Part shown: positions 1,978 to 58,103 of the stretch, in pieces | How positions within the stretch are numbered: position 1 is the stretch's first letter | How the letters are laid out: every line of letters starts with the position of its first letter | Origin: Acidobacteriota bacterium | Lineage (GTDB): Bacteria; Acidobacteriota; Vicinamibacteria; Vicinamibacterales; UBA2999 | NCBI GenBank assembly: GCA_046726375.1 | Contig: JBKPAJ010000065.1 | Coordinates: 6,724-70,723 of the forward strand | DNA: 64,000 nt | Direction: 5' to 3' | Notes under the pieces: model-generated | Told to the model about the DNA's origin: nothing | Databases searched by the model: none | What the model saw: only the letters and a program-made list of their open reading frames with translations | Program-made: the position numbers and the translations under genes

Positions 1978-3486
1978 ATGGATACGATTCAGCACGACAC
2001 ACACCTGGAGGAAGCTACCAGTCTGGATTCGGACGTGGCGACGTTCCGAGAGAATCTGCGGCACGCGTCGGACGTTGCCGCGCGGCTGCACGAACGACTC
2101 GACCGGACGAGGGTGACACCCGCCAAGAGCAGGAGTGAGATCGCCTCGGTGTTCGACGAGCCACTTCCCGAAGAGGCTCAGCCGATGGCCACCATCCTGC
2201 AGAACGTGGAGGAGCACATCTTTGCGAACTCCACCTTGTACTCGAACCCTCGTTTCTTCGGCTACATCAATGGCAGCGGCAATCAGGCGGCGGTGCTCGG
2301 CGATCTGCTCGCCGCCGCGGTCAACCAGATTTGCGCCAAGTGGCAGTTTTCTCAGGCGGCGTCGGAGGTCGAGCGTCGCGTCATCCAGTGGATCGCACAG
2401 TTCGTCGGGTATGGATCCGATGCCGGAGGGTGTCTGCTGAATGGCGGGTCGGCCGGCAACTTCGCGGGGGTCGCGGTGGCCCGGCAGCAGAAGGCGCCGT
2501 TCGACGCGAGCACGGCGGGCGGGTGGGGCGGCCCTCCGCTGACGTTGTACGTGTCGCAGGAGGGGCACGCGTCGATCGACAAGAGCATGGCGCTGCTCGG
2601 CATGGGCTCCGGTCAGTTGCGCAGGATCGCCGTCCGGGACGATTTCACCCTCGATCTCGAGGCGCTTGCGCAGCAGGTCACGGCAGACCGCGCGACCGGG
2701 TATCACCCGATCTGTGTGGTGGGCAATGCCGGCACCGTCAACACTGGGGCCGTGGATCCGCTTGCGACCCTGGCGGAGTTCTGCCGGTCGCAGGGGTTGT
2801 GGTTTCACGTCGACGCGGCGTATGGGGGTCCGGCGGCGCGAACCTCCGTCGCCGGCCCGCTCTTCCACGGCCTGGCCGAAGCCGATTCGGTTGTCGTCAA
2901 CGCGCACAAGTGGCTGTACGTTCCGGTGGAGGCCTCGTGCATTCTGGTGCGGCAGCCGAGCGCGCTCCGAGACACCTTTCGCATCGTCGCTGACTATCTG
3001 CCGGACGACAGCGACCGGACGGACGACGGCGCAATCGACTTCAAAGATTACGGTCCACAGCTCTCGAGGAGTTTCCGCGCGCTGAAAGTGTGGATGACAT
3101 TCAAAGCGTACGGCGCACGGAAACTACGGGCCGCGATCGAGAGCAACATCGCGGTGATGCGGTATCTGTCGGATCGCATCGACGCCTCATCGGACTTCGT
3201 GCGCCTTGCGCCCGTGCCATTGTCGGTGGTGTGTTTTCAGTACCGCACCTCAGACGTGTCCCGTCACGACGATCACGGATACCTGAACAGGTTGAACGGC
3301 TCTCTGGTGGACGCGCTGGCGCGAGACGGCCGTATGTTTCTCTCAGCGACGAAGATTCGCGGGAAGACGGCGCTCCGCGCGTGCAGCGTCAACCACCGGC
3401 TGCGACGGTGCGACGTGGACTTTTTGTTAGATGTCATCCGGGAGGTCGCGGCAACCAATGTATCAATGCGGTCCGCGACGAGGTGA
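1978..3486 (+). CDS. PLP-dependent group II amino-acid decarboxylase (aromatic-L-amino-acid/tyrosine decarboxylase-like)
   Basis: 502 aa. It contains SGGSAGNF, HVDAAYGG and the PLP-lysine motif NAHKWLYVP typical of group II decarboxylases. Confidence 0.9.
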   Translation: MDTIQHDTHLEEATSLDSDVATFRENLRHASDVAARLHERLDRTRVTPAKSRSEIASVFDEPLPEEAQPMATILQNVEEHIFANSTLYSNPRFFGYINGSGNQAAVLGDLLAAAVNQICAKWQFSQAASEVERRVIQWIAQFVGYGSDAGGCLLNGGSAGNFAGVAVARQQKAPFDASTAGGWGGPPLTLYVSQEGHASIDKSMALLGMGSGQLRRIAVRDDFTLDLEALAQQVTADRATGYHPICVVGNAGTVNTGAVDPLATLAEFCRSQGLWFHVDAAYGGPAARTSVAGPLFHGLAEADSVVVNAHKWLYVPVEASCILVRQPSALRDTFRIVADYLPDDSDRTDDGAIDFKDYGPQLSRSFRALKVWMTFKAYGARKLRAAIESNIAVMRYLSDRIDASSDFVRLAPVPLSVVCFQYRTSDVSRHDDHGYLNRLNGSLVDALARDGRMFLSATKIRGKTALRACSVNHRLRRCDVDFLLDVIREVAATNVSMRSATR

Positions 3487-6972: not shown

Positions 6973-8432
6973 GGTCACCTGTCAGCCGTCGCGAGTTCGT
7001 TGCCCTGAGCGGTGGCGTCATCGCAGCCGCCACGCTGACGCGCGCGACGTCACCGCACGACTGCGGGAGCCATCCGATTCCGCACTTCGACGTGCCGCTC
7101 CCGATCCCTCCTGTGTTGCAGCCGATCCGAATGGACGCAACCACCGACTACTACGAGATTGTGCAGCGCGAGGAGCGTGTGGAGATCGTGCCAGGCCGGC
7201 ATACGACGATTTGGGGATACAACGGCACGTTTCCTGGACCCACGATCAAAGCCACGCGCGGCCGGAGCGTGATCGTTCGTCACGTCAATCGATTGGGCAC
7301 GCCGACCGTCGTCCACCTGCACGGCGGCGTGACACCGCCAGAGTCGGATGGCTTTCCGATGGACCACGTCATGCCCGGGGAGGCACGCGCGTACGTGTAC
7401 CCGAACATGCAGCGAGCGGCCACGCTCTGGTACCACGATCACGCAATGGATCGCGCGGGCAGAAATATCTACATGGGCCTCAGCGGGCTCTACGTGCTCG
7501 AGGATGACGACGAGCGATCGTTGGGCCTACCGGAGGGACCATACGATGTGCCACTGCTGATTCAGGATCGCCGCTTTGCGTCTGACGGATCCTTCCACTA
7601 CGAGATGGTGAATCACCTGGGCGCGAAGAGCGGAACGCTGCTCGTGAACGGCGCGCCCTGGCCGCGGTTGGACGTGTCCACGCGAGCGTATCGATTTCGG
7701 ATTGTGAACGGTTCGAATGCGACACCGCTGCGCCTCGCCCTCAGCTCGGGCGATCCTCTGATTCAGATCGCCACAGAGGGCGGGTTGCTCCCCGCTCCGG
7801 TTGTGTGCCGGGAGATCCCGCTCGCGATGGCCGAGCGCGTCGAGGTCATTGTTGATTTCTCACGGTATTCCGTGGGCACCAACATCGTGTTGCAGAACCT
7901 GAACACGCGTGGCGCAACCGGATCAATCTCGAATGAGATCATGCAGTTTCATATCGCGCGCATCGAGCGCGACGCTCGCGCCATCCCGGCGCGTCTCGCC
8001 GAGAGCGAGGCGTTGGACGCCTCTGCCGCGGTCCGCACGCGGCAGTTCGTCTTTTCGGTGCGGCCTTCCTTCGGTCCGCTCCCACATCCGAGTTGGCGGA
8101 TCAACGGCCGGCCCTTCGAACCGGAGAGACCGATCGCGTCACCACGGTATGGCGACGTGGAGGTGTGGCGCTTCACCAACAAGAGATTCCTCGGAGTCCT
8201 TGGCATCGTGCATCCCGTCCACGTTCACCTCGTCACGTTCAAGGTGCTGGACCGGAACGGAGGACCGCCGCTGCCTTACGAAACGGGTTGGAAGGACACC
8301 GTGGCTGTCGATCGGGACGAAGACGTGAGCGTGATTGCCAGGTTCGAGGGCTATCGAGGTCGTTACCTCGTGCACTGCCACAATCTGGAGCATGAGGATC
8401 ACAGCATGATGGCCCGGTTCGATGTCGTGTGA
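6969..8432 (+). CDS. multicopper oxidase with Tat signal (laccase/bilirubin-oxidase-like)
   Basis: ATG 6969 overlaps the upstream stop (ATGA). Twin-arginine signal SRREFVALSGGVIAAATL. Copper motifs HLHGG, WYHDHAM and HCHNLEHEDHSMM. Confidence 0.9.
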   Translation: MRSPVSRREFVALSGGVIAAATLTRATSPHDCGSHPIPHFDVPLPIPPVLQPIRMDATTDYYEIVQREERVEIVPGRHTTIWGYNGTFPGPTIKATRGRSVIVRHVNRLGTPTVVHLHGGVTPPESDGFPMDHVMPGEARAYVYPNMQRAATLWYHDHAMDRAGRNIYMGLSGLYVLEDDDERSLGLPEGPYDVPLLIQDRRFASDGSFHYEMVNHLGAKSGTLLVNGAPWPRLDVSTRAYRFRIVNGSNATPLRLALSSGDPLIQIATEGGLLPAPVVCREIPLAMAERVEVIVDFSRYSVGTNIVLQNLNTRGATGSISNEIMQFHIARIERDARAIPARLAESEALDASAAVRTRQFVFSVRPSFGPLPHPSWRINGRPFEPERPIASPRYGDVEVWRFTNKRFLGVLGIVHPVHVHLVTFKVLDRNGGPPLPYETGWKDTVAVDRDEDVSVIARFEGYRGRYLVHCHNLEHEDHSMMARFDVV

Positions 8433-15311: not shown

Positions 15312-15504
15312 CGGAACCGGTCCGGTACTCGGCGTCGCTCGATGCGGATCTTCCCACTTTGATCCAATCAGTGAAGGTGCACGGGTTCGAAGGACTCGTC
15401 GCGAAACGTTGCGCGAGTCTCTATGAGCCAGGCCTTCGGTCAGGCGCGTGGATGAAGATGCGCGTGAACCGCGGCCAAAGAAACATCGGGAGGGTAGAAA
15501 AACC

Positions 15505-15705
15505 ATGGCGACTGTCACTCTGACCGCTCGGTATCTCGACTTGTTGAAACCGCAACGGAAGCGGTACGAAGTGTTCGACACGATCGTGCCAGGCTTCGCG
15601 ATCCGCGTGACGTCGGCGGGGCACAAGTCTTTCACGCAGTACTACCGCCATGGCCGACTACGGCGAGTCGGTTTGGGTCGCTATCCCGACGTGTTGTTGG
15701 GTCGT
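15505..15705 (+). mobile_element. truncated tyrosine-recombinase (P4-type integrase) N-terminal arm-binding domain remnant
   Basis: MATVTLTARYLDLLKPQRKRYEVFDTIVPGFAIRVTSAGHKSFTQYYRHGRLRRVGLGRYPDV is the DUF4102-type integrase arm domain. The catalytic domain is absent and the downstream reading frame is uninformative. It contains repeat copy 2 (15526-15581). Confidence 0.65.
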
Positions 15706-16097
15706 GCTTGGCTACAGCCAGTACAACTTCATCAACTCGCCCCAGGGTACCGCAGATTGTCGGAAAATTCCTCGCCGATTCGTTCACCAATCGCTGACCG
15801 GCGCAGCAGCAGCCTCGCAGAGGGCGCCGGATCGGACAAGAGCCGTCCAATGAGGAGCCGTTGCGCTACAGCCGGTCGATAATCGAGGCCGCGATACCCA
15901 AACGTTTTGATTCTGTTCTCGAACGACACTCGCCCTTGAACTAGCTTCACTAGTCTCGCCATTGTCGGCGTCGAACCGGAGCTCTTTCATGTTCGCGTGA
16001 CGCGAACCTTTCAGGGTGTCTACTCGCGGCCATGCCGAAAGTTGGCCGAAGCAACTGTAGCGCCTAGAGGCGAAGGAATAACCTAAGGTAGCAGCCA

Positions 16098-16124
16098 TGT
16101 CACATTCCGAAGGCCTATCCCGTC
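16098..16124 (+). promoter_or_regulatory. ECF41-type promoter, perfect TGTCACA-N16-CGTC
   Basis: TGTCACA at 16098-16104, a 16-nt spacer, CGTC at 16121-16124, 32 nt upstream of ATG 16157. The track ORF starting at 16097 begins inside this motif. Confidence 0.7.
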
Positions 16125-16156: not shown

Positions 16157-16585
16157 ATGAAACGAACCTTCGCTCTTATTCTCGGCGCCCTGGCTGCAGC
16201 CGCCCTGTTGGGGGGGCTTGTGCATGCCGTGCTGGTGGCCGCGCACCTTTCCGAGCCAGCCGCCACCACGGTTTACGGCCTGACCCCCCGGCGACTCTGG
16301 GCCACCACGGTCGCTGTACTGGCGCTGGTCGGCGTGGTCATCGGTGGGCTGGCTCTGGCCCGCCCCGCCAGTCGTTTCGGCACCGCCTCTGGGGGACTTG
16401 GAGCCATCGTGGCCCTGGTGGCGGGGCTAATCGCCGCGGTCAATGGCGGGCTGGTTTTGGCTATCGCCAACGGTGGTCCCGGCACCGGCAACGGAGTAGT
16501 CGGCGGCGCCGGGGCGTTGGTGCTGGGGCTGATCGGCATGGCCCTCGGCGGGCTGGCTCTGGCCCGCTCCCACCGTACGGCCTGA
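16157..16585 (+). CDS. Gly/Ala-rich four-helix membrane protein co-transcribed with the ECF41 sigma
   Basis: MKRTFALILGALAAAALLGGL... contains four hydrophobic helices. An RBS-like GGAGGACTAGAGGAACG lies upstream, and the sigma gene follows 16 nt downstream. Confidence 0.65.
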   Translation: MKRTFALILGALAAAALLGGLVHAVLVAAHLSEPAATTVYGLTPRRLWATTVAVLALVGVVIGGLALARPASRFGTASGGLGAIVALVAGLIAAVNGGLVLAIANGGPGTGNGVVGGAGALVLGLIGMALGGLALARSHRTA

Positions 16586-16601: not shown

Positions 16602-17555
16602 GTGAGTTCCGTGAACGCGATGTCGAATCCCGCCGCGAGCTTCGAGCCGTACCGCCGGCGCCTGCTCGGTCTCGCCTACCGCATGCTCGGGTCGATGGCC
16701 GACGCCGAGGACGCGGTGCAGGAGGCGTACTTGCGCTGGCATTCGGCCAACCGCGACAACGTGTCGAACCCGAGAGCGTTTCTCATGACCACGACGACGC
16801 GGATTTGTCTCGACATGCTGACCTCGGCGCGTGCCCGGCGCGAGGAGTACGTCGGCCCGTGGCTGCCGGAGCCGGTTGTTGACACCGAAGCGCTCGCGCC
16901 CGACAGCCGCACGGAGCTGGCCGAGGATCTCTCCATCGCGCTGCTCTTGGCGCTCGACCGGCTGTCGCCACTCGAGCGGGCGGCCTTCCTGCTGCACGAC
17001 GTGTTCGATTTCTCGTTCAACGAAGTGGCCACGGCACTGGAGCGGAGCGAGGCTGCATGCCGGCAGCTTGCCGCGCGCGCACGCGCAAACGTGCGCGCTG
17101 CGCGGCCACGCGGCGCGATCGCGCCGCCGGCGCGTTCGGGCCAGATCGATGCGAAACATGCGCAGCTCCTGTCTGCATTCGCGGCGGCAACCCAGTCGGG
17201 CGATCTGACTGCACTGACGCAGATGCTCGCGAGCGACGTGCGCGTGGTGACGGACGGCGGTGGCAAGGTGCGGGCGGCGCAGAACGTGATCGAGGGCGCC
17301 GATCGCGTGGCGCGGTTCCTGGTTGACGCCACACGCAAACGCCCAGGTGCCTGGTGGCGCGACGACTTCACGCTGCGCTTCGCGACCATCAACGGCCTGC
17401 CCGCTGTCATCGTGGACGGACCCGAAGGACCCGTGCAGACGGCGGCGTTCGAGATCGAGGGCGACGTGATACGAGCGCTGTACGTGGTGCGCAATCCGGA
17501 CAAGTTGCGGCATTTGGCGGCCGCATCGGCGCCGCACGAGAGCGGTCGCGGCTGA
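16602..17555 (+). CDS. ECF41-group sigma factor (SigJ-like) with fused SnoaL-like C-terminal domain
   Basis: Sigma regions 2 and 4 (DAEDAVQEAYLRWH, RICLDMLTSARARR, ERAAFLLHDVFDFSFNEVA) are followed by a C-terminal extension carrying the DGGGK (VTDGGGKV) and NPDKL (VRNPDKLRHL) signatures described for ECF41. An alternative start is ATG 16620. Confidence 0.9.
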   Translation: MSSVNAMSNPAASFEPYRRRLLGLAYRMLGSMADAEDAVQEAYLRWHSANRDNVSNPRAFLMTTTTRICLDMLTSARARREEYVGPWLPEPVVDTEALAPDSRTELAEDLSIALLLALDRLSPLERAAFLLHDVFDFSFNEVATALERSEAACRQLAARARANVRAARPRGAIAPPARSGQIDAKHAQLLSAFAAATQSGDLTALTQMLASDVRVVTDGGGKVRAAQNVIEGADRVARFLVDATRKRPGAWWRDDFTLRFATINGLPAVIVDGPEGPVQTAAFEIEGDVIRALYVVRNPDKLRHLAAASAPHESGRG

Positions 17556-52954: not shown

Positions 52955-53130
52955 AAACCGAACGCAATATGGTGTGGCAGCCGCCCGACCTCGTTCTTCA
53001 AAGGACTCGGCATCCAGGACGAGCAGGAACGAAGTTCGTCTCTTTGCAGCAAAGACGACCGCGAGGATCACGCCGTGGTCCTCGCGAGAGCGGCGGGATT
53101 CAATTTCCAAGCGTGCTCCTTCAATCATTA
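52935..53130 (-). pseudogene. carotenoid-cleavage-oxygenase (RPE65-family) C-terminal remnant, frameshifted
   Basis: EDHGVILAVVFAAKRRTSFLLVLDAESFEE, then in the next frame VGRLPHHIAFGFHGQYI. This is the characteristic last blade of the family with nothing upstream. It overlaps the hydrolase 3' end. Confidence 0.4.
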
Positions 53131-53206
53131 CACATGGGTCTCGGCGCGAATTCCCCTCGTCAGCTAAATTTACTTGGGTTCTGGCGCAGCAGACGAATGA
53201 ATCCGT

Positions 53207-53611
53207 TCAGCGCCATCGATTTGCCTCCTGCTTCAGCCAGTACCGGATACCACGGCCGGCATATGGTTCTTGCGCAAACCGCGGGATGACGTGCATGTGT
53301 GCATGCATTACGTCCTGCCCGCCGGTAGCCGCGCAGTTCCAGCCGACGTTGTAGCCCTGTGGCTGGTACGTCGCGTCCATCCACCGCTTCACATCGGCGA
53401 GCAACTGAAATGACGTGCACACCTCGTCGAGCGTTAGATCGAATACGGTTTCAGCGTGACGAACCGGAATGATCACGCCGGAGCCGACCAGCGCACCTTG
53501 TTGCCTGGCGTTCTGCAGGAAAAGCGCCGAGTCGTTGCGACAAACGAGCCGCTGATCGGGATCGTCCGCCCAGTGGCACAGAGGACAGTCGCTCGGGATG
53601 ACGTCTGGCAT
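53207..53611 (-). CDS. HIT-family (histidine triad) protein
   Basis: N-terminal CPLC and the histidine triad HAHMHVIPR. Confidence 0.85.
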   Translation of the reverse strand: MPDVIPSDCPLCHWADDPDQRLVCRNDSALFLQNARQQGALVGSGVIIPVRHAETVFDLTLDEVCTSFQLLADVKRWMDATYQPQGYNVGWNCAATGGQDVMHAHMHVIPRFAQEPYAGRGIRYWLKQEANRWR

Positions 53612-53704
53612 GTCGCGGTTCGCGGAGTTGAAGGTTCGAGCGGCGACTCGATGAGCCCGTGGCTGTCCTCGGGCGCGACTTGCGCGGAATCTTACGCAGG
53701 CGTT

Positions 53705-54211
53705 CTAGACTCTCGAACCTTTGCTCTTTGGTACCGAGTGCTTGGTGTTGTAAGCGATCGCCGCGCGCAGCAACGCCTTGAGCGCAGTCTTGTCTATCTT
53801 GTCTCCCTCGCGAAAGTCTATCGCCCGCCACGTGTTCCCCTCCAGGCCCGCGTTGAAGAGCTTCTTGGGATCAGGGAGCTCGGCTCCGTTGAAGAACGTG
53901 AGCTTCACCTTGTCCTTGTGGGCATTGGCGAGGGCGTACATCCCCTCGTGCGACCAGACGGGGCTCCCCATCCACTTCCATTCTTCGACTACCTCGGGGT
54001 CCGCCTCGCGGATGAGGGTCCGGATTTCGGCCAACCTCTCGCCTCTCCAATCCCCCAGGTCCGCGATTCTCTTGTCGATCCGCTCGGATGCGCTCATATG
54101 GTGTGATGACGTGGCGACCGCCTTGCGCGGTTTGGCCGCCTTCGCAGCGACCCGCTTGGCGGCGGCCTTCTTTGCGACCTTCGCCGACTTCGTGGACGTC
54201 TTGCCGGGCAT
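53705..54211 (-). CDS. DUF1801 (YdhG-like) domain protein with Lys/Ala-rich N-terminal tail
   Basis: From ATG 54211: MPGKTSTKSAKVAKKAAAKRVAAKAAKPRK..., then RIADLGDWRGERLAEIRTLIREADPEVVEEWKWMGSPVWSHEGMYALANAHKDKVKLTFFNG. Confidence 0.75.
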   Translation of the reverse strand: MPGKTSTKSAKVAKKAAAKRVAAKAAKPRKAVATSSHHMSASERIDKRIADLGDWRGERLAEIRTLIREADPEVVEEWKWMGSPVWSHEGMYALANAHKDKVKLTFFNGAELPDPKKLFNAGLEGNTWRAIDFREGDKIDKTALKALLRAAIAYNTKHSVPKSKGSRV

Positions 54212-54258
54212 TGTGTTCACTCCAGGACTGCGGTGACGTGCGAGGATCCCGGCCGGCG

Positions 54259-54753
54259 CTACGGGACCCAGCCGGGCAGGGCGGCCGCCTGCCGGATCCA
54301 TGTTGCCATCTGCGCCTCGTCGAGCTGATCGTCCTCGCGGATGTAGAGGTAGCGTACTTCCTCGTGCTTGGACTCGCCAGGCGGAACGGGACGCAGCGAC
54401 GTGCCGCGGAAGAACGCCACCTTGACGTAGTTCGTGAAGCAATGGAAGTTGAGGAACCAGCCCTGGCCCTCGACTCCGTAGAAGGGCGAGTTCCATTTGA
54501 CCGCCTTGCGCACGCCGGGGACGGTGCGCACGATGAGTGCGTCGAGGCGGCGCCCGACGTCGCGTTTCCAGCCCGGCATGGCCGCGATGTAGTCCAGCAC
54601 GGGGGCGTCGCCGTCGGCCTTCGCGATCTGAGGGTTGCCGCCCGAGAGTAGGACGGGGACCTTCTCGCCTTCTCGCACCTTGATCGGCTTGGCCTTACTC
54701 GCACCGGGCTTGGCCTTCGCCCCAGCCTTCGGCTTCTTGATTGACGCCTTCAT
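54259..54753 (-). CDS. DUF1801 domain protein with Lys/Ala-rich N-terminal tail
   Basis: From ATG 54753: MKASIKKPKAGAKAKPGASKAKPIK..., then PVLDYIAAMPGWKRDVGRRLDALIVRTVPGVRKAVKWNSPFYGVEGQGWFLNFHCFTNYVKVAFFRG. Confidence 0.75.
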   Translation of the reverse strand: MKASIKKPKAGAKAKPGASKAKPIKVREGEKVPVLLSGGNPQIAKADGDAPVLDYIAAMPGWKRDVGRRLDALIVRTVPGVRKAVKWNSPFYGVEGQGWFLNFHCFTNYVKVAFFRGTSLRPVPPGESKHEEVRYLYIREDDQLDEAQMATWIRQAAALPGWVP

Positions 54754-54809
54754 CTGCCGCTGGATTCGTCGGTTTTGATTCGCCACGCTTCGTTCCTGTG
54801 TTCGAGCGG

Positions 54810-55244
54810 TCAGGCGCTCGCCGGCATGGCCTCCAGGCGGCGCCAAAAGAAGTACGAGAGCCCCCAGAGCACGCCGGTGCCCGCCGCAAAGCCCCAGGCC
54901 TCCGGGCCATCTCCCACCGAGAGGTGGGCGATGAGCGCAGAGCCAAGGGTGATCGCGAAGCCGGCGTACGCCCACTCCTTGAGCCGCGCCGGCACCGGCG
55001 CAAGCAGCAGCACCACGCCGAGGAGCTTGGCCCATGTGAGTTCCACCCGGAAGTAGTCGGGGAAGCCGAGGTGCGTGAACGCCTCCGCCACCTGCGGCAG
55101 GCGCAGTTGCGCGTAGGCGGTGAAGCCTATCTGCAGGCAGAAGAGCGCGGTGACGATCCAGAAACCGATGACGATTCCTTTGGAGCGGGGCAGGCTCAGG
55201 TCCATATGCGAGAGGGCGCCGCTGCCTTCTAATGTCACATTCAT
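54810..55244 (-). CDS. DoxX-like family membrane protein
   Basis: 144 aa with four helices. AEAFTHLGFPDYFRVELTWAKLLGVVLLLAP...EWAYAGFAITLGSALIAH is the DoxX-like pattern. Confidence 0.75.
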   Translation of the reverse strand: MNVTLEGSGALSHMDLSLPRSKGIVIGFWIVTALFCLQIGFTAYAQLRLPQVAEAFTHLGFPDYFRVELTWAKLLGVVLLLAPVPARLKEWAYAGFAITLGSALIAHLSVGDGPEAWGFAAGTGVLWGLSYFFWRRLEAMPASA

Positions 55245-55263
55245 GTCGTCCTCCTTTCACCAT

Positions 55264-55290
55264 GACGGATCGCACAGGGTGAATGTGACC
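55264..55290 (-). promoter_or_regulatory. ECF41-type promoter (GGTCACA-N16-CGTC) proximal to the DoxX-like gene
   Basis: The minus strand reads GGTCACA ttcaccctgtgcgatc CGTC and ends 19 nt before ATG 55244, with GGAGGA as RBS. Confidence 0.6.
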
Positions 55291-55305
55291 GCTGCCCCCC
55301 GGCTT

Positions 55306-55332
55306 GGTCACATCAGCGACGTTTCGTCCGTC
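55306..55332 (+). promoter_or_regulatory. ECF41-type promoter (GGTCACA-N16-CGTC) facing the sigma gene
   Basis: The plus strand reads GGTCACA tcagcgacgtttcgtc CGTC, 37 nt upstream of ATG 55370. Confidence 0.6.
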
Positions 55333-55341
55333 AGTTACCAT

Positions 55342-55368
55342 GACGGAGCGCGACGGAGGAATGTGACC
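55342..55368 (-). promoter_or_regulatory. second minus-strand ECF41-type promoter abutting the sigma start codon
   Basis: The minus strand reads GGTCACA ttcctccgtcgcgctc CGTC. The motif ends 1 nt from ATG 55370 on the opposite strand. Confidence 0.5.
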
Positions 55369-55369
55369 G

Positions 55370-56248
55370 ATGCCCACACCTGAGTGGCTCGCTGAGCAAT
55401 TCGAGGAGCACCGCCCTCATTTGCGCGCGGTGGCCTATCGGATGCTCGGGTCAGCGAGCGAGGCAGAGGATGCTGTTCAGGAAAGTTGGATTCGACTCGG
55501 CCGCACCGATGTCGGCGCGGTCGAAAACCTGCGAGCCTGGCTGACAACCGTCGTCGCGCGGGTGTGCCTCGACATGTTGCGGACGCGGACGAGGCGCCGG
55601 GAGGCCCCCTTGGACGTGCACGTGCCTGATCCGGTGATCACTAGCGCCGACGATCCGGAGTCCAACGCCATGCTCGCCGACTCGGTCGGTCTCGCGCTCC
55701 TCGTGGTGCTGGAGGCCCTCGAGCCGGCCGAGCGGCTCGCCTTCGTGCTGCACGACGTGTTCGGCATGACCTTCGATGAGATCGCGCCGATCGTGGAATG
55801 CTCGCCGGTCGCAGCGCGTCAGCTCGCAAGCCGTGCGCGTCGGCGCGTTCAGGGGAACGTTCCTGACGCAGACCGCGACCTGGAGCAGCAGCGGCGTGTC
55901 GTCGATGCGTTCCTCGCCGCCGCTCGCGAGGGCGATTTCGAACGCCTGATGACCGTGCTCGATCCGGACATCGTGTTGCGAGCGGATGGCGGTGCGCTCG
56001 CGAGCGCATCACGGTTTGTGCGAGGGGCCCAGGCGGTCGCCGGTCAGGCCGCGACGTTCTCGAGGCTCGGCTTGTCCAATCAGGTGGTCCTCGTGAATGG
56101 CAATGTCGGGCTTCTGTCGCGCCGGCCCGACGGCCGGCTGTTTTCCGTGATCGGCTTCACGATTGCCCGCGGCAGGATCGTTGCGATGCATATCCTGGCC
56201 GATCCAGAGCGTCTTAAGCGAGTCGATCTGTCGGGCATTGAAAGCTGA
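55370..56248 (+). CDS. ECF sigma factor with SnoaL-like C-terminal extension (ECF41-like, lacks DGGGK/NPDKL)
   Basis: HLRAVAYRMLGSASEAEDAVQESWIRLGR...WLTTVVARVCLDMLRTR (region 2), ERLAFVLHDVFGMTFDEIAPIVECSPVAARQLASRARRRV (region 4), then about 100 aa of NTF2-like tail. Confidence 0.9.
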   Translation: MPTPEWLAEQFEEHRPHLRAVAYRMLGSASEAEDAVQESWIRLGRTDVGAVENLRAWLTTVVARVCLDMLRTRTRRREAPLDVHVPDPVITSADDPESNAMLADSVGLALLVVLEALEPAERLAFVLHDVFGMTFDEIAPIVECSPVAARQLASRARRRVQGNVPDADRDLEQQRRVVDAFLAAAREGDFERLMTVLDPDIVLRADGGALASASRFVRGAQAVAGQAATFSRLGLSNQVVLVNGNVGLLSRRPDGRLFSVIGFTIARGRIVAMHILADPERLKRVDLSGIES

Positions 56249-56357
56249 GCTCTGTCAGAAGCTCGTCAACGACGACCGTCAGCGGACGCCGCGATGGCCG
56301 TGTTGCGGGGAGCCGAGCGACGGCAGCGCGCGCCCGCAACGCGGCTGAACGTCCGCC

Positions 56358-56750
56358 CTACCCACGCAGCAGCTGCGTGACCTGAATGAGATTGCCGCAG
56401 GTGTCGTTCAGCATGGCGATCTTGGAGCCGGTCACGTCCGTGGGTGGCATGGTGAACTCGGCGCCGCGCGCTTTCATCCGCTCGTAATCGGCCTGCACGT
56501 CGTCGGTGAAGAACATGGCCGCGGGCTGGCTTTGCTGAAACATCGCCTGCTGGTAGGCTTTGGCCGCCGGGTTGCCGTTGAGCGCCAGCTGCAGCTCCGT
56601 GCCGTCAGGGTCCTCTGGTGAGGCCACCGTGAGCCAGCGATACGGCCCCTGGCTGAAGTCGGCCTTCTTCACGAAGCCCAGGACTTCGGTATAGAAGCGC
56701 AGGGCTTTCTGCTGTTCGTCGACGTACACGCTGGTCAGCTTGATCTTCAT
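56358..56750 (-). CDS. VOC-family glyoxalase-like protein
   Basis: From ATG 56750: MKIKLTSVYVDEQQKALRFYTEVLGFVKK...GAEFTMPPTDVTGSKIAMLNDTCGNLIQVTQL. The longer track ORF to 57335 is antisense to the sigma gene. Confidence 0.85.
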   Translation of the reverse strand: MKIKLTSVYVDEQQKALRFYTEVLGFVKKADFSQGPYRWLTVASPEDPDGTELQLALNGNPAAKAYQQAMFQQSQPAAMFFTDDVQADYERMKARGAEFTMPPTDVTGSKIAMLNDTCGNLIQVTQLLRG

Positions 56751-56792
56751 CGGTTCCCTCCTGATGTCACATTCGCGGGCGCTGCCGCTCCG

Positions 56793-56819
56793 CGTCACAT
56801 TGTTTGTCGTTCGTCCGTC
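56793..56819 (+). promoter_or_regulatory. ECF41-type promoter (CGTCACA-N16-CGTC) facing the second sigma gene
   Basis: The plus strand reads CGTCACA ttgtttgtcgttcgtc CGTC, 36 nt upstream of ATG 56856. Confidence 0.6.
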
Positions 56820-56827
56820 AACGCTAT

Positions 56828-56854
56828 GACGGAAGGCGACGAGGAAGTGTGACC
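56828..56854 (-). promoter_or_regulatory. minus-strand ECF41-type promoter abutting the sigma start codon, facing the VOC gene
   Basis: The minus strand reads GGTCACA cttcctcgtcgccttc CGTC. It sits in the same position relative to the sigma ATG as 55342-55368. Confidence 0.55.
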
Positions 56855-56855
56855 G

Positions 56856-57734
56856 ATGAACGAACGCGATTATTTGGCCGAGCGATTCGAAGAGCATCGA
56901 ACCCACCTGCGCGCCGTGGCTTACCGGATGCTCGGCTCGTTGAGCGAGGTGGACGACGCCGTTCAGGAAGCGTGGCTGCGACTGAGCCGCGCCGATACCA
57001 CGGGCATCGACAACCTTGGCGGATGGTTGACCACGGTCGTCGCGCGCGTGTGCCTTGACATGCTGCGGTCGCGCACATCGCGGCGCGAGGAGCCGTTCAT
57101 CCCGCACGCGCCGGAGCCGGTCGCGACCGGCACGAGCGGGAGCAGCCCCGAGCAGGAAGCGCTCCTCGCGGATTCGGTCGGGCTCGCGCTGCTCGTCGTG
57201 CTCGACAGGCTGACGCCGGCGGAACGCCTCGCCTTCGTGCTGCACGACATGTTCGCCGTGCCGTTCGAGGAGATCGCACCGATCGTCGGCCGTTCCGCAG
57301 AGGCAACGCGGCAGCTCGCCAGTCGCGCGCGGCACCGCGTGCGCGGCGGCGCGGCGGGGCCCGACTCCAATCTTGTTCGGCAGCGCGGGGTCGTCGATGC
57401 CTTTCTTGCGGCATTACGCAGCGGCGACTTCGAAGGCCTGCTCGCCGTCCTCGATCCGGATCTCGTGGTTCGCACGGACCTCACGGTCCCATCCGGCGCG
57501 CCGACCGAGGTCCGCGGCGCGGCGATCTGGGCGAAGCAGGCGGTCGCCTTCGGGCACCTCGCGCGACTCGTGCGCCCCGCGCTCGTGAATGGGGCCATCG
57601 GCGTCGTGATGGCGCCGCGGGGACGATTGTCCAGAGCGCTCACCTTCAAGATCGCGAACAGCAAGATCACCGAGATCGAGGTCATCGGCGATCCGGCGCG
57701 GCTCGGCGAGCTCGACGTGTCGATCGTCGACTGA
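56856..57734 (+). CDS. ECF sigma factor with SnoaL-like C-terminal extension (paralog of 55370-56248)
   Basis: HLRAVAYRMLGSLSEVDDAVQEAWLRLSR...WLTTVVARVCLDMLRSR, ERLAFVLHDMFAVPFEEIAPIVGRSAEATRQLASRARHRV. Same length (292 aa) as the neighbour. Confidence 0.9.
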   Translation: MNERDYLAERFEEHRTHLRAVAYRMLGSLSEVDDAVQEAWLRLSRADTTGIDNLGGWLTTVVARVCLDMLRSRTSRREEPFIPHAPEPVATGTSGSSPEQEALLADSVGLALLVVLDRLTPAERLAFVLHDMFAVPFEEIAPIVGRSAEATRQLASRARHRVRGGAAGPDSNLVRQRGVVDAFLAALRSGDFEGLLAVLDPDLVVRTDLTVPSGAPTEVRGAAIWAKQAVAFGHLARLVRPALVNGAIGVVMAPRGRLSRALTFKIANSKITEIEVIGDPARLGELDVSIVD

Positions 57735-57857
57735 GATATGCCGATCGACGTGCTCCGTCATCACGTCGCCACGCTCGATGTGACCGGTCGGGGTCGTGAA
57801 GTCGAACACGGTGCATATCGGCGTCGAGCGTGAACTCTCCGGTCACGTTCGTGTTAC

Positions 57858-58103
57858 CTAGCCAGCCGAACTCGAGCGTTCCGGCAAAGTCATCGGTGAT
57901 CGGTCGATGCCGACCTTCAGCGCCACTCCCACGATTGCGAAGGCGTTGATGGCACAGTCGCGGAGTGCCAGGTCGAGCGGCGTCCCCACAAAGCAGGACA
58001 TCGTGATCTTGTCGAAGATGACCTCGCTGGCCTGGGGCTCGAGCTCCGGAACGAGCTGGAACGGCGGCGAGTCCCGGAGAAACGCCGGCTTCACCTGGTC
58101 GAG
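57858..58103 (-). pseudogene. isochorismatase/cysteine-hydrolase-family remnant
   Basis: LVPELEPQASEVIFDKITMSCFVGTPLDLALRDCAINAFAIVGVALKVGI matches the central strands of the family. The N-terminus and the catalytic Cys region are not recoverable in one frame. Confidence 0.4.

Follow-up and report, generated by a model that had tools for sequence, protein, structure and literature searches.

The question raised by this locus is why two adjacent genes for stress-type, extracytoplasmic function (ECF) sigma factors, sigma 1 and sigma 2, are each preceded by two copies of one promoter motif that stand as mirror images directly before the sigma start codon. The genes lie in a 64-kb stretch of bacterial DNA (the window, meaning the whole stretch analyzed), which the names of its homologues in databases place in the Acidobacteriota, in the Vicinamibacterales or a Luteitalea-like lineage. 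Our answer, to which we assign a probability of roughly 75% and which comes from the comparison of sequences, is that each mirrored cassette is a bidirectional promoter of the ECF41 type, with one arm serving the sigma gene and the other the divergent gene or operon on the far side, which is small and of a detoxification type. ECF41 is among the most widespread of the ECF sigma groups and has no anti-sigma factor.

Six exact matches to the motif GTCACA-N16-CGTC were found on the two strands of the window, whereas dinucleotide-preserving shuffles gave 0.30 on average and never more than 3; a search that allowed one mismatch gave only background (14 matches versus 8.35 expected). Five of the six had been reported in the original prediction, which had also named the density of the motif relative to chance as a check, and all five were recovered in place (Table 1), with the check, run within the 64 kb, giving the excess just described. 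The sixth copy, absent from that prediction, precedes the operon of a third, canonical ECF41 sigma. The identity proposed for the motif was also correct, as it is the same as the published ECF41 promoter, TGTCACA-n16-CGTC (Wecke 2012, PMC3426412). This motif has been validated experimentally in three species (PMC3426412, PMC6180224): it activates reporters in the Bacillus licheniformis system, tested in B. subtilis, and in Rhodobacter sphaeroides, the mapped start there being a G (PMC3426412), and the start of a Sinorhizobium meliloti RpoE9 target is likewise a G, the ninth nucleotide after CGTC (PMC6180224 Table 1; PMC3616915).

Four of the copies make up two mirror-symmetric cassettes of about 60 bases, in which a rightward −35 element, N16 and −10 element are followed by a gap of 8–9 nt, the −10 element, N16 and −35 element of a leftward promoter, 2 nt and the sigma ATG. 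Cassette 1 reads GTCACA (55307–12), N16, CGTC (55329–32), 9 nt, GACG (55342–45), N16, TGTGAC (55362–67), CG and ATG (55370), and cassette 2 reads GTCACA (56794–99), N16, CGTC (56816–19), 8 nt, GACG (56828–31), N16, TGTGAC (56848–53), CG and ATG (56856). The distances first reported for these elements were reproduced, since the plus-strand CGTC stops 37 nt short of the sigma 1 ATG and 36 nt short of the sigma 2 ATG, and TGTGAC ends 2 nt before each ATG, or 1 nt when the motif is taken as 27 nt long, as it had been. The sigma leader, predicted at ~28 nt, would be made up of the opposite promoter, in whose spacer GGAGGAA, the Shine-Dalgarno sequence, takes up the 3' end.

We scanned one genome per species, 596 Gb in all, for GTCACA-N16-CGTC-N{6,11}-GACG-N16-TGTGAC, a 20-base pattern for which ~3 matches are expected by chance (596 Gb x 6 gap lengths / 4^20). 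At least 120 loci were found, in at least 120 species and at least six phyla (Actinomycetota, Alphaproteobacteria, Acidobacteriota, Chloroflexota, Myxococcota and Gemmatimonadota), the listed carriers including Streptomyces, Kribbella and Mycobacterium among the Actinomycetota, Bradyrhizobium and Rhizobium, and Sorangium and Anaeromyxobacter among the Myxococcota. Of the 120 listed loci, 103 had a gap of 8 nt and 12 one of 9 nt; the other five had gaps of 10, 11 or 6 nt. A gene resembling sigma 1 and sigma 2 abuts one end of the cassette in 111 of the 120; these listed sigmas are 40–67% identical to sigma 1 or 2, which always outscored the canonical sigma where the latter matched, and sigma 2 was the best tblastn query at ~105 of the 111 listed cassette-linked sigmas of other phyla. 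The logo of the family across the listed loci is cTGTCACATCGG...GTTCGTCA-N6-(A)TGACGGA.C.CGACGaggGAA-TGTGAC-cG-ATG. The original prediction had read the likeness of the two window cassettes as a local duplication of cassette and sigma gene together, which did not hold: sigma 1 and sigma 2 are 57% identical, and sigma 2 is nearer to homologues from Myxococcota or Actinomycetota (up to 67%) than to sigma 1. Because the same cassette fronts this subfamily in at least six phyla, the similarity of the two window cassettes reflects conservation across the family.

In 99 of the 111 listed loci the far side of the cassette bears a divergent gene. Partner families, assigned by clustering and then by Pfam (n = 96), were led by carboxymuconolactone decarboxylase (CMD; 44/96) and Glyoxalase/VOC (16/96), followed by ABC ATPases (6), NAD-binding/NmrA/epimerase proteins (6) and DoxX_2 (5, apart from a Tsukamurella locus that also has DoxX_2 as its divergent partner); rarer among the listed partners were a DUF1059-like small protein (4), MFS (3), PNPOx (3), MMPL (2), YCII (2) and DUF1801 (1). 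In the window itself the Pfam matches agree with the gene content first proposed, namely DoxX_2, two DUF1801, HIT and a Glyoxalase/VOC gene. It had further been suggested that such targets fall outside the classical ECF41 set of CMD, oxidoreductase and epimerase (COE) genes. This stands for the window, where no COE gene adjoins the sigmas, but not for the family, in which CMD is the commonest partner and VOC, DoxX_2 and DUF1801 recur beside it. On the evidence of gene content, the family keeps the classical COE setting of ECF41, to which the partner families seen in this window are added.

The strongest evidence that the minus arm is a promoter is, in our reading of the sequences, that both arms and the sigma recognition helix have changed in concert. 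Variant cassettes of the form GTTACC-N16-CGTC-N8-GACG-N16-GGTAAC occur at two plasmid loci, L211 (1134–1197, Tsukamurella) and L209 (1117–1179, Streptomyces), and their sigmas carry KM(L/A) in the helix of region 4.2 where six aligned GTCACA-type sigmas (sigma 1, sigma 2, the canonical sigma and three others) carry RQL. Among unselected loci, 54 cassettes were GTCACA/GTCACA, two were GTTACC/GTTACC and none had mixed arms. The presence of each arm also goes with the genes around it. Where the plus arm stands alone, an adjacent divergent partner is mostly lacking (L031 and, in the plasmid sample below, Nonomuraea, S. tendae and NBC_00663); where the minus arm stands alone, the divergent gene is of the VOC, DoxX or membrane-protein kind. 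The additional sigma paralogues in the collected loci numbered four, too few for an unbiased sample, and plasmid loci chosen by protein alone were used as a second sample instead. In that sample, the complete cassette, its gap 8 nt long and its arm 2 nt from the start codon, is present at four Rhizobium loci where CMD is the divergent gene, and a Streptomyces locus with a divergent CMD gene retains the minus arm. At locus L086 the cassette has a divergent gene on one side and an operon of a DoxX-like gene and a sigma gene on the other, the minus arm standing 19 nt from an ATG that is not that of the sigma; because this cassette precedes the DoxX-like gene and not the sigma, the right arm is independent of the sigma start codon. 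These observations support the view that the minus arm behaves as a promoter and that both orientations are real, one serving the sigma gene and the other the divergent gene.

Close relatives of sigma 1 were also collected by protein alone. A scan of metagenome contigs gave 80 loci with sigmas 65–94% identical to sigma 1, of which 75 had sufficient upstream sequence and were searched for the arms with any gap allowed. Both arms were present in 60, only the minus arm in six, only the plus arm in five and neither in four, which places the plus arm in 65 and the minus arm in 66 of the 75. At least two of the four orthologues that have neither arm sit directly behind a co-directional VOC gene. The gap in the 60 two-arm loci was 8 nt in 55, 9 nt in three and 10 nt in two, and in 58 copies 2 nt separate the minus arm from the ATG. 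A comparison of 44 unique orthologous cassettes gave majority identities of 0.85 in the plus spacer, 0.89 in the gap and 0.92 in the minus spacer; third codon positions, by comparison, reached 0.72 and the left flank 0.52.

For the start sites we used the rule, taken from three mapped ECF41 promoters, that transcription begins at a G at about the ninth nucleotide past CGTC. Each cassette would then be a dyad-symmetric bidirectional promoter read by ECF41-type sigmas, in which the left, plus-strand arm would drive the sigma gene, amounting to positive autoregulation, and the right, minus-strand arm, within the DNA of the sigma leader, would drive the divergent VOC gene or the DoxX-DUF1801-DUF1801-HIT unit. 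Across an 8-nt gap, the rightward start would be the G of GACG and the leftward start the G opposite the last C of CGTC; each would coincide with the outermost −10 base of the opposite arm, and the two starts, 9 bp apart, would diverge and give transcripts that do not overlap. A face-to-face arrangement with a 10-nt overlap of the transcripts, which we also considered, is wrong, as the predicted starts diverge. A bubble from −11 to +2 would span the same 14 bp in both orientations, and the first ~26 nt of each transcription unit would contain the promoter of the other. Since these ~14 bp would be opened both ways, a cassette could hold one RNA polymerase in one orientation at a time. We infer from the arrangement the start sites, which sigma reads which arm and any consequence of mutual exclusion.

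The position of the start codon may be accounted for in simpler terms. With the Shine-Dalgarno sequence inside the spacer of the opposite promoter, the ATG should either follow the hexamer by 0–4 nt or, given a new Shine-Dalgarno sequence, lie beyond 10 nt from it, and the distances are bimodal as this argument predicts: the first usable start codon lies 0–4 nt past TGTGAC in 85 of 104 listed loci and mostly at 10 nt or more in the rest. An interplay of sigma translation and divergent transcription at the ATG, which had been suggested from its closeness to the motif, is not needed, since cassette geometry and Shine-Dalgarno spacing explain the adjacency.

Several observations weigh against the bidirectional reading. 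The spacers and gap of the orthologous cassettes (0.85–0.92) are more conserved than third codon positions (0.72), so more than the four core elements is constrained, and the second use of each spacer as the leader of the other transcript explains this conservation only in part. The counts for the orthologues are not phylogenetically independent, and the covariation of arms and helix consists of two loci that may descend from a single shared ancestral event. Sinorhizobium B11 has a divergent HAD gene yet only the plus arm, and both arms stand at L209, where the upstream neighbour, as annotated, is co-directional; the sole annotated upstream open reading frame (ORF) of that locus overlaps the cassette and may be spurious. 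In addition, no cassette strings were found in the differential RNA sequencing and start-site supplements for Bradyrhizobium japonicum.

Of the other explanations, the one that survives best, while still improbable, is that compaction and shared ancestry produced the mirror layout as a neutral side effect; both promoters would work, but neither the 8-nt gap nor the nearness of the ATG would serve any function, and competition between polymerases would be negligible. Shine-Dalgarno spacing does account for the ATG adjacency, as described above, and the likeness of cassette DNA across phyla could come from horizontal spread of a module. Against this, neutral insertions and deletions should have broadened the distribution of gap lengths, whereas the 8-nt gap dominates the listed loci even though 6–11 nt was searched, and it is kept in the GTTACC variants, at sigma identities as low as 40–67%.

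Somewhat less probable again is that the plus arm is the sole promoter and that the right motif belongs to the sigma mRNA leader as a conserved element, either a Shine-Dalgarno context or an upstream frame of eight codons (ATG-ACG-...-ATG-TGA, ending 3 nt before the sigma ATG), its likeness to a promoter being secondary. The 33 nt before the ATG are near-invariant in the orthologues, where the spacer identity of 0.92 was the highest recorded, and the right arm is kept in the six orthologues whose plus arm has no match within one mismatch. In addition, an A, G or T two positions before GACG in 90 of 96 loci makes a start-like NTG codon usual, and the N16 spacing puts the TGA of TGTGAC in frame with it. 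The frame is, however, automatic from CGTCAT, N16 and TGTGAC, and the start rule from mapped ECF41 promoters puts the 5' end on the G of the upstream ATG, which would then not be transcribed whole; for these reasons an upstream frame or leaderless peptide was rejected as the primary explanation. The element is also missing from partnerless orthologues (L031, L039 and L202) that still have a normal Shine-Dalgarno sequence and ATG, occurs away from sigma starts (at 55264–55289 in the window and in L086), and has changed to GTTACC jointly with the other arm in L209 and L211.

The least probable alternative, that the dyad is mainly an operator through which a symmetric factor (a dimeric repressor or two free sigma molecules) shuts off both genes, with promoter activity secondary or additional, would suit the palindrome (a CGTCA-N6-TGACG core within GTCACA...TGTGAC outer arms at invariant spacing), the conservation of the spacers beyond what a promoter needs and the binding of free Mycobacterium tuberculosis SigJ to sigI promoter DNA without core enzyme (Kd ~5 uM, PMC5766207), but each half is a complete ECF41 promoter with the correct spacing, single halves stand alone and rightly oriented before genes (at 16099 and in the one-arm loci), no conserved regulator gene accompanies the cassette, whose partners vary, and two free sigma molecules on the dyad are speculation.

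If the cassettes are bidirectional promoters, the 8-bp spacing might act as an orientation switch, an idea that we advance only tentatively. Each initiation would yield either sigma or target mRNA, which would hold the two in a fixed ratio and cap the positive feedback, possibly with free sigma bound at the dyad, and the device would belong to the branch of ECF41 sigmas described in the following paragraph. In Escherichia coli, competition between the orientations of bidirectional promoters appears only if one direction is strongly activated (PMC12825309).

The two sigma factors are related to ECF41 over their full length. Both align end to end with NF007214, the SigJ subfamily model (positions 6–290 of 293), on which sigma 1 scores 280.6 bits, above the cut-off of 271, and sigma 2 244.7, below it; on TIGR02957 they score 252.9 and 216.9 bits, both under the cut-off of 323.25. 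Both align with the M. tuberculosis SigJ structure 5xe7, the closest solved structure, and both have the Pfam domains Sigma70_r2 and r4_2. Like ECF41 sigmas, which are built of sigma2, sigma4 and a C-terminal extension of ~100 residues resembling SnoaL_2/NTF2, they have the two sigma domains and the extension, in which SnoaL_2 is weak in sigma 1 (22.9 bits, under the 27-bit cut-off) and gives no match in sigma 2. The signatures YVGPWLPEP (in the linker), DGGGK and C-terminal NPDKL, which were defined in PMC7730460 and are thought to mediate control by the C-terminal domain, are not found in either: a motif check agreed with the first report that DGGGK and NPDKL are absent, and PWLPEP is absent as well. 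The third sigma of the window carries all of PWLPEP, DGGGK and NPDKL. Among the listed loci, all 94 complete cassette-linked sigmas likewise have none of the three and end in an ADPxRL-like motif in the place of NPDKL. The ECF41 promoter lies beside both window genes, which are flanked by five exact copies. The evidence supports placing sigma 1 and sigma 2 with ECF41 as SigJ/SigI-like members without the canonical signatures, and by the motif comparison the cassette-linked sigmas form a non-canonical, so far unnamed, ADPxRL-type branch of ECF41.

In several respects the window sigmas resemble the known ECF41 systems (Wecke 2012, PMC3426412; SigJ/SigI of M. tuberculosis; RpoE9 of S. meliloti). 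They share the bipartite promoter, the domain order with homology over the whole SigJ model, the lack of an adjoining anti-sigma gene and a small, local regulon, and their cassette-bearing relatives have CMD and oxidoreductase/epimerase partners. They differ in falling short of TIGR02957 and the signatures and in having VOC or DoxX/DUF1801/HIT as local targets instead of COE genes. Several ECF41-type sigmas with one motif in one genome recall the cascade in M. tuberculosis, which has two ECF41 sigmas and in which SigJ drives sigI (PMC5766207). The groups ECF56, ECF294 and ECF295 also have a SnoaL-like C-terminal extension and lie near ECF41 in the ECF tree, but membership in ECF56 was rejected since its representative SigG1 has the promoter CCG-N17-CCCTCC, a long linker between sigma2 and sigma4 and a partner anti-sigma factor (PMC7730460), and the promoter and linker of the window sigmas differ. 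EcfQ of B. japonicum was set aside as a relevant case because it turned out to be ECF33.

Bidirectional promoters are known for sigma70, where they are defined by starts 7–25 bp apart (Warman/Grainger; bioRxiv 10.1101/2020.01.31.928960; PMC12825309), a range that includes the 9 bp predicted for the cassette. As in that class, the cassettes have promoter elements on opposite strands in a pseudo-symmetric array (55307–55367 and 56794–56853), each −35 element would lie in the other unit and polymerase orientations would be mutually exclusive. The sigma70 promoters rely on the internal symmetry of TATAAT, with overlapping −10 elements and starts usually 18 bp apart, whereas the −10 elements of the cassettes, CGTC and GACG, are 8–9 nt apart and do not overlap. 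The cassettes further differ in being those of an ECF sigma, in having −35 and −10 elements fully specified on both strands, in a layout kept across phyla and in that one product is the sigma that presumably reads the promoter.

The original prediction regarded the arrangement as undescribed, which is correct in part. The presence of the motif before both members of divergent ECF41/COE pairs was already noted as frequent by Wecke 2012 (PMC3426412), which says nothing on overlap, symmetry or spacing. The fixed, interdigitated geometry, with its 8-nt gap, mutual leaders and −35 element 2 nt from the ATG, is not mentioned in the ECF41 texts searched; neither Todor et al. 2020 nor the ECF reclassification paper takes it up, and a search on face-to-face promoters and ECF sigmas returned only unrelated papers. 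The locus is one member of a large conserved class whose components are known and whose geometry, link to a sub-branch and covarying variant appear to be undescribed in the literature searched.

If the bidirectional reading is true, a sigma gene and its target competing for one polymerase site would be a simple limit on the positive feedback of ECF41 systems, and the class of bacterial bidirectional promoters would extend from sigma70 to alternative sigmas. The 60-bp cassette and its 8-nt rule could serve as an annotation marker in genomes and metagenomes for the subfamily, its start codons and its direct targets, and the ECF41 target repertoire would gain VOC, DoxX_2, DUF1801, PNPOx and DUF1059-like genes. 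The GTCACA and GTTACC cassettes, with the change from RQL to KM in the helix, would provide, ready-made in nature, a swap of specificity with which orthogonal two-output promoters could be engineered.

The features of the window that bear on these points are collected in Table 1. The span of the VOC gene given there is corrected to its start codon at 56748–56750. A scan of 53000–58000 for sigma70-type promoters, which may not suit Acidobacteriota, detected none, and on that result no alternative basal promoter could be proposed for the region.

Table 1. Genes and candidate promoter copies at the two cassettes and at the third sigma gene of the window; starts and leaders are predictions.
Feature	Coordinates	Strand	Basis	Predicted start and leader
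Single one-way promoter copy before third sigma operon	16099..16124	+	exact motif	G16133; leader 24 nt
DUF6223 membrane-protein gene	16157..16585	+	E 9e-31	
Third sigma, canonical ECF41	16602..17555	+	TIGR02957 327 bits (cut-off 323.25); NF007214 361 bits	
HIT-family gene, last of leftward unit	53207..53611	-	Pfam HIT E 9.9e-12	
DUF1801 gene	53705..54211	-	Pfam DUF1801 E 5e-23	
DUF1801 gene	54259..54753	-	Pfam DUF1801 E 1.7e-18	
DoxX_2 membrane-protein gene, first of leftward unit	54810..55244	-	Pfam DoxX_2 E 4e-18	
Proximal leftward promoter copy for DoxX unit	55264..55289	-	exact motif	~55255/55254
Rightward, putatively autoregulatory promoter of sigma 1	55307..55332	+	exact motif	55341/55342
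Distal leftward DoxX promoter inside sigma 1 leader	55342..55367	-	exact motif	55333/55332
Sigma 1, ECF41/SigJ-like with C-terminal extension	55370..56248	+	NF007214 280.6 bits	
VOC/glyoxalase-family gene, putative divergent target of cassette 2	56358..56750	-	Pfam Glyoxalase E 7e-19	
Decayed promoter copy GTCACA-N16-CTCC	56766..56791	+	read from sequence	
Rightward, putatively autoregulatory promoter of sigma 2	56794..56819	+	exact motif	G56828
Leftward VOC promoter inside sigma 2 leader	56828..56853	-	exact motif	56819; leader 69 nt
Sigma 2, paralogue of sigma 1 in same subfamily	56856..57734	+	best PDB match 5xe7 E 4e-43	

The additional leftward copy near the DoxX gene lies in a 52-nt direct repeat (55246–55297 and 55324–55375, 77% identical) that represents a duplicated right half of cassette 1, including the sigma ATG, which has become CTG. 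This copy is kept in the DoxX-linked orthologous loci L001, L010 and L012, and the leader predicted from it is ~11 nt and begins at the Shine-Dalgarno sequence. Around it are perfect inverted repeats that contain the −35 sequence, one pair at 55234–55243 and 55280–55289 (GTCACATTCA/TGAATGTGAC) and another at 55283–55290 and 55306–55313 (ATGTGACC/GGTCACAT), and an additional GTCACA half-site overlaps the first DoxX codons; the repeats near the DoxX start could pair as RNA in the long leader from the distal promoter. Between the VOC gene and sigma 2, the copy in cassette 2 is the only leftward one, and the decayed rightward copy, a seventh, is homologous to GTCATA-N16-CGTC or CGTT sequences at the same place in L001 and L023, with an 8-nt direct repeat, GTCACATT.

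The third sigma gene stands in an apparent operon behind the DUF6223 gene. This canonical ECF41 operon has no divergent neighbour gene, and the motif occurs before it in one orientation only. Three sigmas with a common motif within 64 kb suggest cross-talk or a cascade, and cross-recognition of the arms by the three is likely because their motifs and recognition helices are alike. Just upstream of the promoter is an ORF (15448–15882) that looks truncated and whose start, as we take it, resembles the N-terminus of a phage-type integrase (DUF4102-like); it is possibly the remnant of a mobile element beside the operon.

Among the variant cassettes, the L209 locus (a Streptomyces plasmid) has CMD and DoxX genes downstream of the sigma gene in the same direction (2148–3098). 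The second sigma of L093, on the minus strand with its start near position 1419 of the reverse complement, has a mirrored change in the −10 elements, GGTC (+) and GACC (−), and L080 has the −10 elements GGTC and GACA at ~640–700; these two may be a second case of concerted change in both arms.

Insertions were seen in several orthologous loci. In L001 (85% identical), at 7400–7990, two near-complete copies of cassette 2 are parted by ~600 nt that hold a long near-perfect hairpin (ggacagagaggagatctctcaaaccgcaac...gttgcggttttgagagatctcctctctgtcc) and may be an element resembling a miniature inverted-repeat transposable element with a large duplication. The copy on the VOC side has one mismatch in the plus arm (GTCAtA) and that on the sigma side one in the minus arm (GAaG). 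That each mismatch falls in the arm no longer needed is suggestive only; a clean subfunctionalisation would be too strong a claim, as both copies are near-complete with one mismatch each. Five other loci (L010, L016, L065, L066 and L068) have an in-frame insertion of ~33 nt after codon 3–4 of the sigma gene (gaggaacgcc...ggcgttccgggagac), which contains an inverted repeat (aacgcc..ggcgtt) and is present as a tandem pair in L066.

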